This document shows, piece after piece, positions 476 to 56,340 of a stretch of DNA of 56,340 nt. A program made the translations under genes and the position numbers. The stretch comes from an uncultured virus (IMG/VR IMGVR_UViG_3300020471_001437) (lineage: Duplodnaviria; Heunggongvirae; Uroviricota; Caudoviricetes), in IMG/VR virus record IMGVR_UViG_3300020471_001437, one strand, 5' to 3'. The notes under the pieces are model-generated. The model saw only the letters and a list, made by a program, of their open reading frames with translations, was not told the DNA's origin and did no database searches. Position 1 is the first letter of the stretch. Every line of letters begins with the position of its first letter.

Positions 476-1090
476 ATGGAACTACGACCATACTACGATA
501 GACCTACGGCCGTTATCAGCGATTACCTCGCTCGTATCGACCAAAAGGTGAGAGCGAACTACCCTCATTGGGGTTACGAAAACAAAGGCGTTTGGCCGAA
601 AGGCGAATACGGAAAGGGTATTCTACGCGCAGACCAATTCTCATTATTGGGAACTTTTGGTCAGTGGCTTATCCCTTCTTCCGGAGCAAACGGTAACTCA
701 ACAACCATCAGCGTTGACTCATTCGGTTGGGCACAGCGCACACTTGACTTCAAAACTCTTGAAGAATTCTACTACTTGCTAATGGGAATTCAATACCCTG
801 TGACACCTCTTTTGGTGACAGAACACCAATGGAGAATTTCCGGTATCGAGACTCCGGTCATCGACCAGCAAATCTTCGAGGTACTTGAGGAACCATTCGT
901 ATGGTACGAAGAGCCAATCGTAATCGAACCTGAAAAGACCGTTGTCTGTGCACACCGTGTCGTTGGTGGACTTTCCAACTTCGGAAACAGCACCATCGCA
1001 GGTGGAGAGAAATGGCGTGTTATCGGCAGTGTAGTCGGTCAGCACCACGAATTGATTCAACAGAGACAATCCATTGGAGAGTTGTCCTGA
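476..1090 (+). CDS. Candidate major capsid protein (possibly single jelly-roll)
   Basis: First gene of the structural operon, strong RBS (AGGAGA), 204 aa, beta-rich, with an EEPIVIEPEKTV strand pattern reminiscent of jelly-roll capsid proteins. The fold is inferred, not shown. Confidence 0.4.
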   Translation: MELRPYYDRPTAVISDYLARIDQKVRANYPHWGYENKGVWPKGEYGKGILRADQFSLLGTFGQWLIPSSGANGNSTTISVDSFGWAQRTLDFKTLEEFYYLLMGIQYPVTPLLVTEHQWRISGIETPVIDQQIFEVLEEPFVWYEEPIVIEPEKTVVCAHRVVGGLSNFGNSTIAGGEKWRVIGSVVGQHHELIQQRQSIGELS

Positions 1091-30176: not shown

Positions 30177-30251
30177 GGCCCCGTGGTGTAGTGGATAGCA
30201 TCATGGTTTGCGGAACCATAGACCCGAGTTCGATTCTCGGCGGGGCCGCCA
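30177..30251 (+). tRNA. trnR: tRNA-Arg (anticodon GCG), CCA encoded
   Basis: Acceptor GGCCCCG/CGGGGCC, D arm GTGT/GCAT, anticodon stem ATGGT/ACCAT with loop TTGCGGA, T arm CCGAG-TTCGATT-CTCGG, 3' GCCA. Confidence 0.95.
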
Positions 30252-44894: not shown

Positions 44895-45293
44895 ATGTCC
44901 AAGGGCGAAAGAAAAGTACAGCAAATCAAGAAAGCGTTCGTTGCATTGCACGAACGGGACAGAATCAACGAAGTTTCTATCAGAGAAGTCAAGAATTGGC
45001 TTGATGATAACACGCGTGACGGCATGACTCTCATGCGACTCGCTAACTTCCTATCAAAGAGACCATCATTCAAGATGGTGCGTAGAGAGCGTAAAGTTGG
45101 TACCAATCAAACCGAATCGTTTTGGACAATGCCTGATGTAATGGTGAGCGAAGAATACACCAAGGCTGAAAACACTGCAAGAAGGATTGGTTGGGTAACT
45201 GACTACGGTAGATGCTTTGATTGCATGGAAATGAGCAGTCTGAATGCCGATGGCGTATGTTCTAAGTGCGAGTGGAAGTATCCGACGGCGTGA
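44895..45293 (+). CDS. Winged-helix DNA-binding protein with C-terminal Zn finger
   Basis: SIREVKNWL...TLMRLANFLSKRPSF...W plus CFDC...CSKC. Confidence 0.6.
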   Translation: MSKGERKVQQIKKAFVALHERDRINEVSIREVKNWLDDNTRDGMTLMRLANFLSKRPSFKMVRRERKVGTNQTESFWTMPDVMVSEEYTKAENTARRIGWVTDYGRCFDCMEMSSLNADGVCSKCEWKYPTA

Positions 45294-45300
45294 AATGTAC

Positions 45301-45345
45301 ACCACATATGTGGTTCACACACGCATGTATAATGAAGGAGGAGGA
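45301..45345 (+). promoter_or_regulatory. Promoter/operator copy 1
   Basis: 14-bp palindrome ACCACATATGTGGT; TATAAT starts 27 nt after the palindrome start; then a purine run. Confidence 0.75.
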
Positions 45346-45810
45346 CGCTCCAACGTCGCTGAGAAGCAAAGACGTGCAGGGACAAGGACCCTGCCCTTCA
45401 CAGACCAATGCGGGTTCGTTAGAGCCCGCAGTCCTCTTGAGGCTTAACTTTCGAGTTTATTCAATGCCTCTTGAGGAATCGCAAAAGTCCTACCCCTCCA
45501 AGGGTAGGCGAAAAAAAAATCTCCTAAACGTAATGGAGATTACTGTAACGAGGTGGTAGAATGGGCGACAGCCCGGGGGCCGGCCGGTGGAAACACCGCA
45601 CGGAACGCCACAATTAGCAATACATACTTGAAAAACAGGACTGCGACTACGAACCACATTTAATTGTGGCATCCCGTAAGGGATGGAGAAGAATGTGCTT
45701 GTGTTCACGCAAAGGTGTCGTCCCGGGTCATGCCGGCGATACTGACACAAGAGGAAACTCGCGGGAGTTACGGTAATCGTTGAGATTACGCGTGGATTAG
45801 CATCCACATA
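45340..45810 (+). ncRNA. Putative structured non-coding RNA
   Basis: No convincing ORF; consecutive hairpins (GCAGGG..CCCTGC, GCGGGTTC..GAGCCCGC, CCTACCC..GGGTAGG, AATCTCC..GGAGATT) directly after promoter 1. Confidence 0.45.
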
Positions 45811-46269
45811 GGCCCAATGGGTCACAGATAGGGTAAAATCCTCTTAATAGGAGGTGTAGACGTCCCTTCGGCTCGAAACACTCATGCAATTGGGTTGCCG
45901 TAAACTATGACCGTCGCCATGACTTTCAAAGGATTGTCGGAGCGGCGGAGGGGAAGATTGCACTTGCCCCACAGATATAGCGCAAACAGACTATTTACTC
46001 CGGAGGTGATTCTGTCACCACCCCAGCGAATAGGCGCGTTGACTATCCCATATGAGGTTCCGATACTTGTATGGAGCGGACGTAAGTCCAACCAAAATCG
46101 GATAGAACCACAGCAGAAACAGAGGACCTCTTCTGCACTAATTCGGTGAGAATATGGTGGTTTGATAACGTCCTCGGTGTACACAAATCTACGATTTTTG
46201 CCGGTGAAACGGTAGAATGAATAGAGGCGTGTCAGGTAGGGTTTGGGACCATTGTAATGATGGTATGAA

Positions 46270-46305
46270 GAAATTACTGATATACGGCCGTATATTGGTG
46301 ATTTC
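46270..46305 (+). terminator. Long hairpin ending the first unit
   Basis: GAAATTACTGATATAC-GGCC-GTATATTGGTGATTTC; all three non-Watson-Crick pairs are G-U on the + strand. Confidence 0.5.
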
Positions 46306-46327
46306 CTCGTAGTACAGAAAAAAGTGC

Positions 46328-46375
46328 ACCACATATGTGGTTCACACACACATGTATAATGAAGAAGGAGAGGGG
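46328..46375 (+). promoter_or_regulatory. Promoter/operator copy 2
   Basis: ACCACATATGTGGT at 46328, TATAAT at 46355. Confidence 0.75.
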
Positions 46376-46660
46376 AATAACCCAAAGAGGCCCCCCTAAG
46401 AGACACAAAACTTCTTCACAGATTGGCACCCATGATTGGGTTTTGTTGATAGTCAAGAGGGATTACGATTGAACACTTGTGTTCATGAATAGTCCAGCCG
46501 AGATGATTGAGCACTTGTGTTCTTTCATCAAAGCAACTCTTGAAAGGAGAAATTCATGATTGGGTGTCATCACAAATCAAACACAGATTTGATAGATAAC
46601 AACTAAGCCGATGGTCACTTCATACATGTATGACGTGACTGTCGGCTTTACTTTTTTTGT
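46370..46660 (+). ncRNA. Putative ~290-nt structured RNA with terminator-like end
   Basis: GGCACCCA/TGGGTGTC and TCAAGAG/CTCTTGA enclose two copies of GATTGA(A/G)CACTTGTGTTC; long G-U-containing hairpin at 46605-46648 followed by a T run. Confidence 0.55.
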
Positions 46661-52019: not shown

Positions 52020-52690
52020 AGATTACGCGTATTGTAAATCTATGAGTGCTCCCCTCGCGGGAGTTGGTTCCGATAACTTCGGGGCCCCACGGGAAACCGT
52101 GCCTAATTGTAGTCTTACGCGGGGCACCAACACTCCGGCTTGGCCGGTTGGAGTTGGGAAGTGTCTTACCGGGGAGTAGCATGAAGACTCCCAAGGTAAG
52201 GCTTGGGTATCACCCGTTCAAAAGGGTGGTAATGCGCTGTCGAGCGCGAGATGAGAAAAGACAGGAAATTAGTTCGCCGGTAACCAACCCGGGGCTTATG
52301 GAACGTTCGCCTTCGGGCGAAGATGGTGTGCCGGGAAGAGGAAACCCGGTTGCTCTCGGAATCGTACATGCCGTACGTGGGTCTTGGCACCCACAGGATG
52401 TATGACGAAAGGGGACCCTTCGGGGATACGGAAACAGGTCATGGGCCGGGACTAACACTCTCGGGTTCCCGCTGTTTCTAACGTGCTTGCGGAGTTGATA
52501 GGCCGCAGGACACCGACTATGACGCGAAAGCCAAAAAGTCGGCACCTGACACCACCGTGAAAACGGAGCAAGTAGGCTTAACACCCCGAAAGCATTCTCA
52601 GAATCGTGAACCAGCCGGTTTAAGACCGGACGGGCCGAAAGGTATCGACAGGACTGAGGGACCGCTGAATAAGCGGGTTGGCGTTTAGTC
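52020..52690 (+). ncRNA. Putative large (~670 nt) structured RNA
   Basis: Dense hairpins with stable tetraloops (CACGG-GAAA-CCGTG at 52088, TTCGCC-TTCG-GGCGAA at 52306, CTTACC..GGTAAG, CCGACT..AGTCGG); only implausible ORFs. Confidence 0.6.
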
Positions 52691-53077
52691 ATTTACCGAA
52701 ACAAGGAATGGATACGTATCGAGCGATAATGAATTATCACCATGATATGCGTTCTGCGGTTAGTTCCGTTCCTGTGGATAACTCAAATGCTCATGGGGGA
52801 TGTAGCCGTAGAACGTTAAATCCGCCGCCAATTGAGCCTCCCCATGCCTCCCCGGAGGACACATAGAACATGATAACAGGTATCAGTGTTAGTACCGTAA
52901 TGCGGTATGCTGGTTCTACAAATAGAACCAACCAATATGCCGGAGACGGCACAGCAAGTCTGTCTGATAGCGTAAGGGCTCTCATTACAGACATGAAGAA
53001 AAGAGGCTATACGCCGGAAAATTCCAACTTATTGAAGAGAGTTTAGTTGGTTACGGTCGAGAGGCCATAGAGGTACC

Positions 53078-54490
53078 ATGTCAAACAAAAAGACTAAGGA
53101 AAACCGACAGGCTGGTAATGCCAGCCAAAAAGGCAAGGAGGTAAGTCACCTAAAGCAAGGTCGTAAGACCAAGCGGGTGAAGGGCCAAGATGCCAAAATG
53201 GGAAGTCGCGGTGGTTATGACCACGCACGACCCATCAACAACAGGAAAAGCAAGAAGCACGTTACAAGCCGAAAGGTTACTGCTTCACGCGCCGCTGGCA
53301 ACGGAAAGCCACGTGTAGAGAAAGCCCCTCCGGGCAAACTCCCACGCGGCAAGAACGGTGACGGAAAGCGGTGGGTTCCTTGGGTAGAGATTCCAAACTC
53401 TGCACAAGTACACCACTACTACTACGTCATCCGTGAGATGCTTGAAGGCGCGGTTCCTGCTGATGTGAAGGATAGGGCACACCGCCTTGGAGTTCAGCAG
53501 TTAGACCTACACGGTCCAACAGTAGGGAGTGTTGAATCGCTCTTAACGAACTCACCACGACTTCGCCGTGATTGGCGTTCAGTCGTAGGAATCCTTCGTA
53601 TGTTGCATGAAGACAACTACATTCCGGCATCCTTCGTTGAGAAGGTGCTGAAGAACCACCCCTTAACGGGTGCGAAGAGTGTACAAGTTGTGCAAGACAC
53701 GTCAGTGGTTGAGGACTTTGTCCAAGACCGTGTTCGTGCAAGCAACAAAAAGTGGGTGTCTGAAGCGAAGGCTTCGTACGCTCGCGCAATCACAAAACTG
53801 CGTGAAAACTTCAATGAGTCATTCACGGAAGAGCAACAACAGTTGTTCCCCGGACTTACAGAAGAACAATACATGCAGGCGGCCGATAAGGCTTGGGCAG
53901 GATGGCCGGAAAATCGTAAGATGCCGGTTATCGACCACGATGGACAGACATTCGTTTGTAAAAACGAACAGGCCTTCGTTACAGCCCACATGACGCGACG
54001 CGCCTACAAGGCGGCTCGCCGTCTCCCGACCCTATTCAGGATGTCGGGCGGCATATCCTACGAAGTGTTGGAGGATAACGAATTCAAACGCAAGTCTGAC
54101 TTCGTAAACATCGAATACGCAACCAAACCCGATGGTGGAGTTTGGTTCGCAGTCGTTAACGGCGGAAACAAGAAGAAGAGTGCAAACTCTCCGTTCCGCT
54201 CACAATACTGCCAAATGTCATCTCACAAAGATGTCAGGCTGTACATTGACGACATTGACACGCCGAAGTCCGCTACAACGGACCACATTCAGCGTGCACC
54301 AAGAGATGTTGCTCCTGAAATCACTGACGACATGTCTGTACCCGAGATGCTTCGGGTAATGGAAGACAGAGGATGGAGTGCTGGACGAGTCAAGGCTCGC
54401 CCGGAACGAAAGCGTCAACCGAAGAGGACACGGAAGATTCAACCCTCCCGTGGCAAACCTCGAGTCGGCCGCAAATCCCGAGAGGGATGA
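53078..54490 (+). CDS. Hypothetical protein with very basic termini (possible RNA-binding)
   Basis: 470 aa; K/R-rich N- and C-terminal tails; lies between two structured RNAs. Confidence 0.65.
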   Translation: MSNKKTKENRQAGNASQKGKEVSHLKQGRKTKRVKGQDAKMGSRGGYDHARPINNRKSKKHVTSRKVTASRAAGNGKPRVEKAPPGKLPRGKNGDGKRWVPWVEIPNSAQVHHYYYVIREMLEGAVPADVKDRAHRLGVQQLDLHGPTVGSVESLLTNSPRLRRDWRSVVGILRMLHEDNYIPASFVEKVLKNHPLTGAKSVQVVQDTSVVEDFVQDRVRASNKKWVSEAKASYARAITKLRENFNESFTEEQQQLFPGLTEEQYMQAADKAWAGWPENRKMPVIDHDGQTFVCKNEQAFVTAHMTRRAYKAARRLPTLFRMSGGISYEVLEDNEFKRKSDFVNIEYATKPDGGVWFAVVNGGNKKKSANSPFRSQYCQMSSHKDVRLYIDDIDTPKSATTDHIQRAPRDVAPEITDDMSVPEMLRVMEDRGWSAGRVKARPERKRQPKRTRKIQPSRGKPRVGRKSREG

Positions 54491-54616
54491 GTGGGGACGG
54501 GCTAATGGCCCACCCACATAGTAAATTGATTGAAGGCGAGGCCTGCGGAAACGCGGCTTCGTCTTCATTTTTTTTTTGGTGGCGACTTTAAGTACTGTCA
54601 CCTTAGAGGTAACGAC

Positions 54617-55120
54617 ATGAGTCATTACACTGAAGTGAAGTCCGCTTTCAGCATCGAACATAGAGATGAACTGATTGCGACTTGTAAGGAACTGTGGCCC
54701 GAAGCCACTGTCCTCGTCGCCGACGAAGGAAAGCACGTAAAATGCCGTGGTTGGCCGGGTCAAACCCCGCGCAACTGCGACATTGTTGTGAGATTCCGTC
54801 GACCGACAGAAGAAAAACAAGGTAACTACGACATTGGCTTCGTTAAGAGAGCCGATGGTTCTTATGCCATGATTTCGGATTGGTACGCTTGCACGTACCC
54901 CGAAGCAACCAACGACAAGGGACGTACAGGTTCCGCGGCGGTTGAAGGCATGTTGAAGCCAATCTACACCCGACGTCTGATGAAGAAGACGCTGAAAAAG
55001 AAGAAGTCCCTGAAAGGATTCAAGGACATTTCAAAGAAGGGTGACGTGATTACTCGAAAGAACAAAGACGGGAAGGAAATACGCTACGCGCGTTTGAAAT
55101 TCCGCAGGGCGGGGCTGTGA
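54617..55120 (+). CDS. DUF1257 (Ycf35-like) protein
   Basis: MSHYTEVK...DIVV...YDIGF...DGSYAMISDW. Confidence 0.7.
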   Translation: MSHYTEVKSAFSIEHRDELIATCKELWPEATVLVADEGKHVKCRGWPGQTPRNCDIVVRFRRPTEEKQGNYDIGFVKRADGSYAMISDWYACTYPEATNDKGRTGSAAVEGMLKPIYTRRLMKKTLKKKKSLKGFKDISKKGDVITRKNKDGKEIRYARLKFRRAGL

Positions 55121-55124
55121 TAGA

Positions 55125-55343
55125 ATGGCTCTGAAGAAACCTGAAATTGTCGAAGTACTTGTGCCGATTGACGACCCGAATGAGGCAATCGTTATTGACG
55201 CGCTGAATTTTGAGGGAGACGCTTGTTCTCTCGCCACCGCAGAGTTCGAGAAGGCTCTTGGTAAGGTTGAGAAGAAGAAGTTGAAACCTGAATTCAGAAA
55301 GAAAAAGGCAAAGGCTCAACGCAACATTAAGTTGGGCAATTGA
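55125..55343 (+). CDS. DUF2997-like protein
   Basis: IDALNFEGDACSLATAEFEKALG...KPEF; usual partner of DUF1257. Confidence 0.7.
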   Translation: MALKKPEIVEVLVPIDDPNEAIVIDALNFEGDACSLATAEFEKALGKVEKKKLKPEFRKKKAKAQRNIKLGN

Positions 55344-55537
55344 CCGGGGAATAGTCCCCATAGAATGAAATTTAACTGACTCGCGCGGCTTGCGGCCGCA
55401 GAGAAACGAGTAGACCCCCATACGTGGGACTATCGAAAGATAGTATGTGTCTACAAACGAAGCATGAGGTTACGAGAGAGCCGGAAGGGCGAATCTGATA
55501 GTTTCGAGTAATGCAACACACCTAATGGGTGTATAGA

Positions 55538-56104
55538 ACAAGTACAGACGGTCTTTGACAAGACACACCACATAGTAGAGGACCGCAACCGTCTGTGCGA
55601 GCAATTCCGAAAGGATTAGTGTGGTGTGTCGTTGAATGGAGCAGGTGAATCCGAAAGGTGAAACCCGTTCGCTAAACACGTGGTGGTGCATTCAGGGGTC
55701 CGGCATAACAGGGAGTAATCCGCACGTTGATGGTGTCGCAACCGGAGTGCTGTTGGCGTCTCGCAGACGCTACGCAAACTGTGAAAACCCACGGGCTCAC
55801 GTCGAGAAGCGGTTAGACCGCAGGCGGGAACCCTCGAACCGGAAACAGGAAAGACGCCTTCACTAAGTCGTGGAGGACCTGATTCCCAAGATTACAACGT
55901 GACCGTCAGGTCACTTAGGGTGTGGCTTGAGGCATTGCGAGAGTGCAATGTCACTCGATGACCACAATTAAACAACGGAGTCCCCTTACGTGGGGACGCG
56001 CTGAACCTTTGCAGGTTCACGCGCCAAACGAGTCGTACGTGTACGACGAAGGCTCCGCCGACGCAACAGACGCAACGTAGTGCCCATTAAGGGGACTCCG
56101 TTGT
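55538..56104 (+). ncRNA. Putative large (~570 nt) structured RNA with pseudoknot
   Basis: Crossing 11-bp helices 55542-55552/55588-55598 and 55562-55572/55620-55630; 17-bp helix 55972-55988/56088-56104; many hairpins. Confidence 0.7.
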
Positions 56105-56117
56105 ATGTAGTGTTGAT

Positions 56118-56219
56118 GTGTATACGGTGCACCCAGCAGGATTCCTACAATGGATGAATGACAAAGCACCAACGATTACTACTAACGTAAACTACCCTCA
56201 TTGGGGATATGAGAACAAG
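56118..56219 (+). other. Mosaic of short fragments homologous to this virus's structural genes
   Basis: 56190-56219 matches 557-586 at 26/30 nt (NYPHWGYENK); 56118-56171 encodes VYTVHPAGFLQWMNDKAP versus VYLRHPAGVPKWVLDEAP in gene 2018-3007. Confidence 0.75.
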
Positions 56220-56340
56220 TGCAATGGAAATTGCAATACCAAAAGTTCTCCAAAAGTTTGCGAAGAAACTTACCCATTATTCTCCGGACGCCGGGACCCA
56301 AGGCCTTTGGCCATCCCAAGGCGATTATAGACAGTGGATG

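Follow-up and report, generated by a model that had tools for sequence, protein, structure and literature searches.

The data support a conserved, covarying non-coding RNA region, outside every Rfam family and present in RNA libraries, near the end of the window (the whole 56,340-nt stretch of viral DNA analysed here, to which positions refer unless a contig or genome is named). It is a real pair of new structured RNAs tied to a new kind of array: a pseudoknotted RNA, B1 (55537 to ~55890), is followed by B2 (defined as 55918–56104, a hairpin and a long helix), which directly heads an array of gene pieces (Table 1). In this anatomy of helices, modules, leader and array we have high confidence. 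The reading that we favour, tentatively, is that of two adjacent conserved RNA modules, in which B1 would be a structural RNA and B2 the leader of an array of probable capsid-gene pieces that could serve as guides against co-infecting relatives. It is seldom that a large structured RNA belongs to no known class, and such RNAs have time and again proved to be ribozymes, guide scaffolds or RNA cages; a little-understood marine virus group here has two of them side by side.

Table 1. Coordinates of the features discussed in the text
Feature	Position	Strand	Remarks
204-aa gene, source of array pieces	476..1090	+	Best conserved among 30 genes of the family (98% identity in G001)
RNA-A, second large structured non-coding region	52030..52860	+	~800 nt, 2.7 kb upstream of B1; no Rfam family
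Genes between RNA-A and B1	53078..55343	+	Basic 470-aa protein of unknown fold, DUF1257, DUF2997
Hairpin + ATAG boundary element, opens B1	55518..55536	+	Precedes many early-region genes
Helix P1 (55542-52 with 55588-98)	55542..55598	+	7-bp core in all homologues; one pair with a two-sided change
Pseudoknot PK1	55562..55630	+	10 bp, sequence-invariant; 12 bp in L051 and L059
Helix P3	55634..55693	+	Lineage-specific inserted hairpin; 3-bp hairpin with conserved 6-nt loop
Candidate second pseudoknot PK2 (55681-83 with 55789-91)	55681..55791	+	3 bp in 11/11 rows
Helix P4	55696..55798	+	Closes multi-branched domain with variable hairpins
Conserved hairpin	55809..55827	+	Strands alternatively pair with 55581-86 and 55589-97, competing with P1
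Hairpin at B1 end	55841..55886	+	Sequence variable, structure conserved
Internal hairpin + TTAG between B1 and B2	55899..55918	+	ORF insertion site in L059
B2 5' motif, YGAG-hairpin-RATGAC	55919..55963	+	Also ahead of second G001 array and G009 array
B2 long helix	55972..56104	+	17 bp here; closes A-rich multi-loop; directly heads array
Array start, cut by contig end	56105..56340	+	Hypervariable; ~1.7 kb in relatives
Diverged piece of 329-aa structural gene	56109..56171	+	52% over 21 codons, E 0.009, weak; directly follows helix
29-nt piece of 204-aa gene	56190..56218	+	10/10 residues identical, 3 silent differences

Viral genome and gene order

The window is the end of a 118-kb virus record (G000) that encodes PolB, a thermosome, an Rpb1-like polymerase, a serine recombinase and an FtsK-like ATPase. 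Excerpts of published accounts of magrovirus group D, which is associated with marine group II archaea, give a gene set of PolB, thermosome, resolvase and RNA polymerase A (PMC5434244; PMC10160649). All four genes are present in the window's virus too, and a head-tail module was recognised neither there nor, as far as the excerpts go, in group D. Judged by gene set, not by tree, the virus appears to fit this group; its host is likely archaeal. The excerpts mention no non-coding RNA or array, and the word 'noncoding' occurs 0 times in that of PMC10160649.

One complete relative (G001, 140 kb, polymerase identity 63%) and a distant one (G009, polymerase identity 31%) are referred to below. In G001 the block has the same order as in G000, namely RNA-A, the 470-aa gene, DUF1257, DUF2997, B1 and B2, 2 kb of non-coding sequence and an AAA ATPase. 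For the 470-aa protein no match was found in Pfam, PHROGs or Foldseek and no clear one in VIA; an Atlas match to a minor capsid family at 0.90 is taken as a lead only. RNA-A folds with a z-score of −4.1, is 82% identical in G001 and, on every contig long enough to include it, occupies the upstream position in this block. It is covered by the deepest RNA contigs in 4/4 runs, though it lies outside the query used to find them. At the RNA-A position of G009, upstream of a basic-ended gene, a long non-coding stretch (L112:1250-2960, − strand) contains two pairs of duplicated 55–110-nt elements and had no Rfam match at the gathering level; it is possibly a divergent RNA-A analogue.

Elsewhere in the early region of the window, a ~40-nt repeated element occurs in three copies (45266-46456 and 51597). 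Circular joining of the contig end to the primase gene was ruled out, as L046 continues with different sequence.

Homologues, covariation and database searches

Homologues were sought with a 19-mer shared with G001, which makes the 19-mer itself invariant by construction. Eighteen metagenome loci were matched, of which 15 are homologues and three (L048, L054 and L062) were dropped as chance matches; G001 adds one more homologue. They fall into about four groups, with some near-duplicates, and gene order is the same wherever a contig reaches the neighbouring genes. Among 22 viral matches to a 16-mer, 21 belonged to one unrelated protein-coding family and were taken as chance, as were 17 of the 18 matches to a looser pattern. 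No homologue was found in annotated phages or in species genomes, nor by BLAST in 14 related virus records (12 of them incomplete), and an nhmmer search over stretches of related genomes recovered B1 and RNA-A only in G000 and G001. The literature searched (main texts, mostly open-access; supplementary RNA-motif or TIGR tables could list loci) holds no description of these RNAs or arrays.

The first-pass annotation, made from the one sequence, had called the region an unclassified RNA and had proposed a covariation test and an Rfam scan as checks; the call came through both. Two-sided changes were seen at 11 of the 64 pairs in an alignment of 11 rows, and 0 of 500 shuffles gave so high a number (a control that related sequences can inflate). 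With Rfam 15, positions 55340-56340 gave no match at the gathering level or up to E 10, in agreement with the earlier failure to recognise RNase P, SRP, tmRNA or group I/II introns; the families without a match there include ROOL, GOLLD, OLE, raiA, HEARO, IMES, the small ribozymes and rRNA. Eight homologous loci had only chance-level snoRNA/miRNA matches in Rfam (E 0.08–0.9). A tmRNA would combine a tRNA-like domain with a tag reading frame; ARAGORN found none in the window or the genome.

Folding of the whole 621 nt gave z-scores of −4.3 on the + strand and −3.1 on the − strand (20 shuffles). B1 alone reached only −1.0 with a folding model unable to count pseudoknots, and many intergenic stretches of the same region also fold well.

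B1, a pseudoknotted RNA

Two crossing helices had been proposed at the 5' end of the region, and both could be reproduced: 55542-52 pairs with 55588-98 over 11 bp with 1 GU (P1), and 55562-72 pairs with 55620-30 across it, in a helix extendable to 12 bp (PK1). None of 1000 dinucleotide-shuffled versions of the 567 nt contained two crossing 11-bp helices. Since looser crossing pairs (at least 9 bp) are common, at 13 to 16 per genome in three genomes, homologues were needed before the pseudoknot could be trusted. The homologues keep the crossing helices; covariation support for PK1 did not materialise, its sequence being identical in 10/10 aligned rows, an invariance by which covariation cannot test it. 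One event in its favour is a pairing 2-nt insertion that lengthens the helix in two loci (Table 1). The changes elsewhere include two-sided ones at 4/8 pairs of P3 (helix 4) and, in the candidate PK2, one G-C to A-U change that represents a single event. The inner hairpins and the GGCATTGC hairpin described earlier are present in predicted folds.

In all rows that reach these positions, the 3' strand of P1 can also pair with 55820-27 and 55581-86 with 55809-14. As read from the sequences, this alternative to P1 is a possible switch.

The hairpin-ATAG element described directly before the unit start is indeed there, at 55518-55536. Elements of this type number 30 on the + strand against 7 on the − strand in G000, and 40 against 13 in G001. 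Between DUF2997 and B1 lie 170–270 nt of hairpin-rich, group-specific sequence (window 55344-55517; L002:4720-4985), which may be an extension of the RNA in the G001 group.

The B1/B2 boundary and the B2 leader

The region had been taken for a single unit of ~570 nt. It consists instead of two modules: a second hairpin followed by [A/T]TAG lies inside it, an ORF is inserted between the modules in L059, RNA contigs are interrupted at this point, and two other arrays are preceded by the 3' third on its own. A hairpin with [A/T]TAG precedes position 55919 in 12/12 sequences and resembles the element that opens B1. The inserted ORF (L059:1755-2018, + strand) has 87 codons and a hairpin-ATAG at its end.

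As to the 3' part, the helix that the first-pass annotation described (55972-88 with 56088-104) is a perfect one of 17 bp with no GU, found in 1 of 1000 dinucleotide shuffles of the 567 nt; what had been missed is that the 3' part is a leader, with an array of capsid-like gene fragments behind it. Across 11 full-length homologues the long helix has 17–24 bp with differing sequences (the B2 helix is otherwise given as 15–23 bp). In the second G001 array and in the G009 array, the latter lying between DUF2997 and the ATPase, the B2 motif is followed by a 15- or 18-bp helix, with no detectable B1. The motif has 19 matches in 0.93 Mb, and the 4 that are followed by a helix of at least 15 bp are all array heads, with a descriptor that was drawn from the very array-head cases counted. 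Identity of the motif with a K-turn or a hammerhead was considered and rejected, because the stem in L051 is altered with Watson-Crick pairing preserved, and the window's type has no A-rich strand.

RNA-library contigs

Evidence at the RNA level comes from metatranscriptome contigs, from runs chosen by query, without strand information or a DNA control. Deep contigs cover the region, contig depth being a quantity that cannot rank expression. In 6 of the 7 marine RNA runs compared, contigs extend over B1 and end at 55828-55858. For B2 and the array, contig starts are at 55918 (in one study, three runs), 55926 and 55938, and from there the contigs continue towards the array or enter it. Neither stretches without contig coverage nor 16 listed runs of small or no share, match-bearing or from the same study, count as evidence here. 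The contig ends give a weak hint of separate B1 and B2+array transcripts. No joint across the region was seen in the RNA contigs, which drop rare forms. Two array alleles were present in one sample.

The array and its source gene

The arrays are made up of 13-nt repeats and folded units of 150–250 nt that carry gene pieces of 25–150 nt. When nucleotide profiles of 28 conserved genes were compared with 14 arrays, 42 of the 44 matches were to the 204-aa gene; a three-fold shuffled control gave 1 match. The pieces of this gene are in both orientations (28 sense and 14 antisense). Of the 444 mismatches counted against the best-matching intact gene, 267 are at the third codon position, as pieces of homologous genes would be expected to show. 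Most pieces are only 70–94% identical to any of 19 intact genes, some contain stops or indels, and several are closest to a clade at 51% protein identity. The pieces do not clearly avoid a virus's own gene: three L046 pieces best match the gene of the window.

The direct repeats are 12–13 nt long, degenerate and 130–550 nt apart, and they differ between the two main groups. Inside the two G001 arrays lie 11 of the 24 matches to the G001 repeat; repeats of this type are semi-palindromic and in G001-type arrays nearly all point in the same direction. The units fold well (z −2.5 or lower for 23 of the 25 among the scores listed), and the gene pieces are predicted to be 53–78% paired, not exposed. 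In all 12 pairs compared, the arrays have diverged more than the RNAs (W/L046 100, 100 and 71%; L057/L052 87, 87 and 52%).

The second G001 array (L076:17165-18450; G001 77.2–78.4 kb) contains five clear repeats and part of the 329-aa gene, and it has a separate B2-like leader. In G006 and G008, gene pieces are scattered and have no leader. One piece lies inside another ORF in a different frame, with 17/17 residues identical to a homologue (L105:6587-6661, G006 46.6 kb; G008 20.5 kb). Each long array of both groups contains, on the opposite strand, a small acidic Ser/Thr-rich ORF of 78–110 aa (e.g. L002:6009-6341, − strand). No anti-repeat of the tracrRNA kind was found in B1 or B2, and no convincing conserved pairing of B1/B2 with the 204-aa gene or RNA-A.

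The 204-aa protein is probably a jelly-roll capsid protein, judging from its gene position and from the fold matches of a poor model (pLDDT 40), in which jelly-roll capsid proteins ranked 1, 2, 4 and 6 at Z 4.6–5.7, values too weak for proof. Searches for a PDB sequence match and for a phage match gave neither.

Comparison with known systems

In excerpts of a study of ornate phage RNAs, ROOL and GOLLD are large, multi-helix and pseudoknotted, with no known function and no obvious partner (10.1101/2024.12.08.627333). RNA-A (~800 nt) and the ~570-nt region are of similar size and likewise multi-helix with pseudoknots, and extensive covarying structure is found here as well, PK1 being based on invariance and PK2 on one event. 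ROOL and GOLLD are often near tRNA islands, whereas B1/B2 lie 25 kb from the single tRNA gene of G000, a tRNA-Arg(GCG) (30177-30251, + strand). In further contrast, the region has no covariance-model match, belongs to an archaeal-type virus, falls into two modules and is followed by an array of gene fragments. Very high abundance during infection and protein-free multimeric nanocages are further traits of the ROOL and GOLLD type of RNA.

CRISPR mini-arrays of archaeal viruses consist of a leader, direct repeats and variable inserts from related viruses, and they are used against other viruses. The arrays described here share the leader, the direct repeats and inserts derived from related viruses, and a virus-versus-virus role is plausible for them. 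They differ in their repeats of ~13 nt, in their folded 150–250-nt units and in their 25–150-nt inserts, which come essentially from one gene and are rarely exact. Instead of the long near-identical repeats and uniform short spacers of CRISPR arrays, their repeats are of 12–13 nt and 130–550 nt apart. No Cas Pfam family was found in 145 of the 156 G001 ORFs.

In stem-loop TIGR-TasA arrays, according to the excerpted sources, hairpins bound the processed units (PMC12045711; 10.64898/2026.09.09.750476). The window's virus resembles these systems in that it encodes a Tas-like protein and has two-spacer units preceded by hairpin-ATAG elements. The 343-aa Tas-like protein had weak matches only (PDB 9mty_A, E 0.008; Pfam Transposase_20, E 0.03), and at least 30 TIGR-like units occur in G000/G001 (L069:2473-11400, the start of G000; G001 53–92 kb), none of them within B1, B2 or an array. 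Neither B1 and B2 nor the array units show two 8–9-nt spacers laid out between box C and box D; they are far longer, and the 30 guides parsed do not target them. With its tiny repeats, long folded units, one essential gene and both orientations, the array layout fits neither CRISPR nor TIGR.

The non-coding RNAs of DGRs, retrons and DRT systems find no counterpart either, in that no reverse transcriptase was detected in 145 of the 156 ORFs of the complete G001 genome, an RVT_3 match being an RNase H protein. A self-splicing intron does not fit loci that are all intergenic, and no spliced joint was seen in the contigs. The element of the Charybdis preprint, as far as it is described in the excerpt, is different from B1, B2 and the array.

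Proposed function and alternatives

In the guide reading, a long transcript would be cut at hairpin-[A/T](T/C)AG elements into B1 and B2+array, and the array units would be released at the 13-nt repeats. A protein effector would then use the units on a target, suggested to be double-stranded because pieces occur in both orientations, and would thereby suppress the assembly of rival group D viruses. B1, together with RNA-A and the basic 470-aa protein, could form the scaffold of an RNP or of an RNA cage, similar to what has been proposed for ROOL and GOLLD. Each half of this scheme we put forward with some reserve: the array may have a guide function, and by analogy B1 may act as a free, abundant structural RNA or scaffold, and neither is more than possible. 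Several results argue against the guide mechanism proposed: a search of 145 of the 156 G001 ORFs gave no effector family (Cas, Argonaute, TnpB or reverse transcriptase), the pieces are imperfect and partly paired, self-avoidance and an anti-repeat are lacking, and some arrays have no B1. The most far-reaching form of the idea we regard as doubtful, namely a novel RNA-guided virus-versus-virus system that combines a pseudoknotted RNA, possibly catalytic or paired with RNA-A, with leader-headed and refreshed long folded guides from the capsid gene of rivals and dispenses with Cas, Argonaute and reverse transcriptase. If the array were a guide store, it would be a new adaptive RNA system and would offer a way to test mutual exclusion among viruses of uncultured marine archaea; even otherwise, in vitro synthesis of B1 (~350 nt) and RNA-A for probing or imaging is feasible.

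The array could instead act as a decoy or sponge, its RNA or DNA soaking up guide-loaded effectors of the host or of rivals (CRISPR, Argonaute, nuclease-less TasA) and so shielding a capsid gene that is unable to mutate away. We consider this unlikely, although it would suit the use of a single gene, the least variable one, the presence of both orientations and of varied synonymous versions of pieces, the additional scattering of pieces in G006 and G008, and a family that has a Tas-like protein and two-spacer guide units. Against it, no targets of the TIGR-like guides were found: the 30 guide units parsed from G000/G001 had 0 matches at 0–1 mismatch in 1.08 Mb, and none of 10 two-mismatch matches lay in the 204-aa gene or the array, which weakens a decoy for the Tas system only. 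For a decoy made of DNA, folded units or a conserved RNA leader would be superfluous.

It is rather unlikely, too, that the pieces are relics, that is, left-overs of illegitimate recombination in a dispensable region, with B2 as a stabilising or terminating stem and B1 as an unrelated neighbour. The stops, indels and low identity of the pieces, their leaderless scatter in G006 and G008 and the absence of B1 beside two arrays are what such a process would leave. Random debris, however, would not derive from one of 28 genes, nor would it sit between same-direction repeats, and the same leader is found at three separate loci, one of them in the virus with 31% RNA-polymerase identity.

With regard to B1, a catalytic or switching RNA, for example a nuclease that would cut transcripts at hairpin-AYAG elements via the alternative pairing of the P1 strand, appears improbable. 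Invariant single-stranded and paired cores with two likely pseudoknots, a conserved alternative pairing that lies 1–7 kcal/mol above P1 in a nested model, and the abundance of hairpin-AYAG elements in both B1-bearing genomes speak in its favour; yet no ribozyme model was matched, the RNA contigs contain no joints, and the alternative pairs are invariant and so without covariation support. The topology of B1 does not appear to match the cores of hammerhead, HDV-like, group I, group II or RNase P RNAs.

That the whole 570 nt is one RNA, with 55841-55918 as a peripheral loop that tolerates ORFs as in introns, is very improbable. Every full-length homologue has B1 next to B2, and strain variation could cause the contig breaks, but no conserved helix joining them has been established (one consensus proposal competes with PK1 and is built on one-sided changes), B2 is found alone, and the hairpin+TAG before B2 is present in all 12 sequences.

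Finally, a DNA cassette store that diversifies the capsid gene by gene conversion or inversion is scarcely credible, as, despite the two orientations, the semi-palindromic repeats and the serine recombinase in the genome, the capsid gene is the least variable in the family, pieces contain stops and G001-type repeats run nearly all one way.
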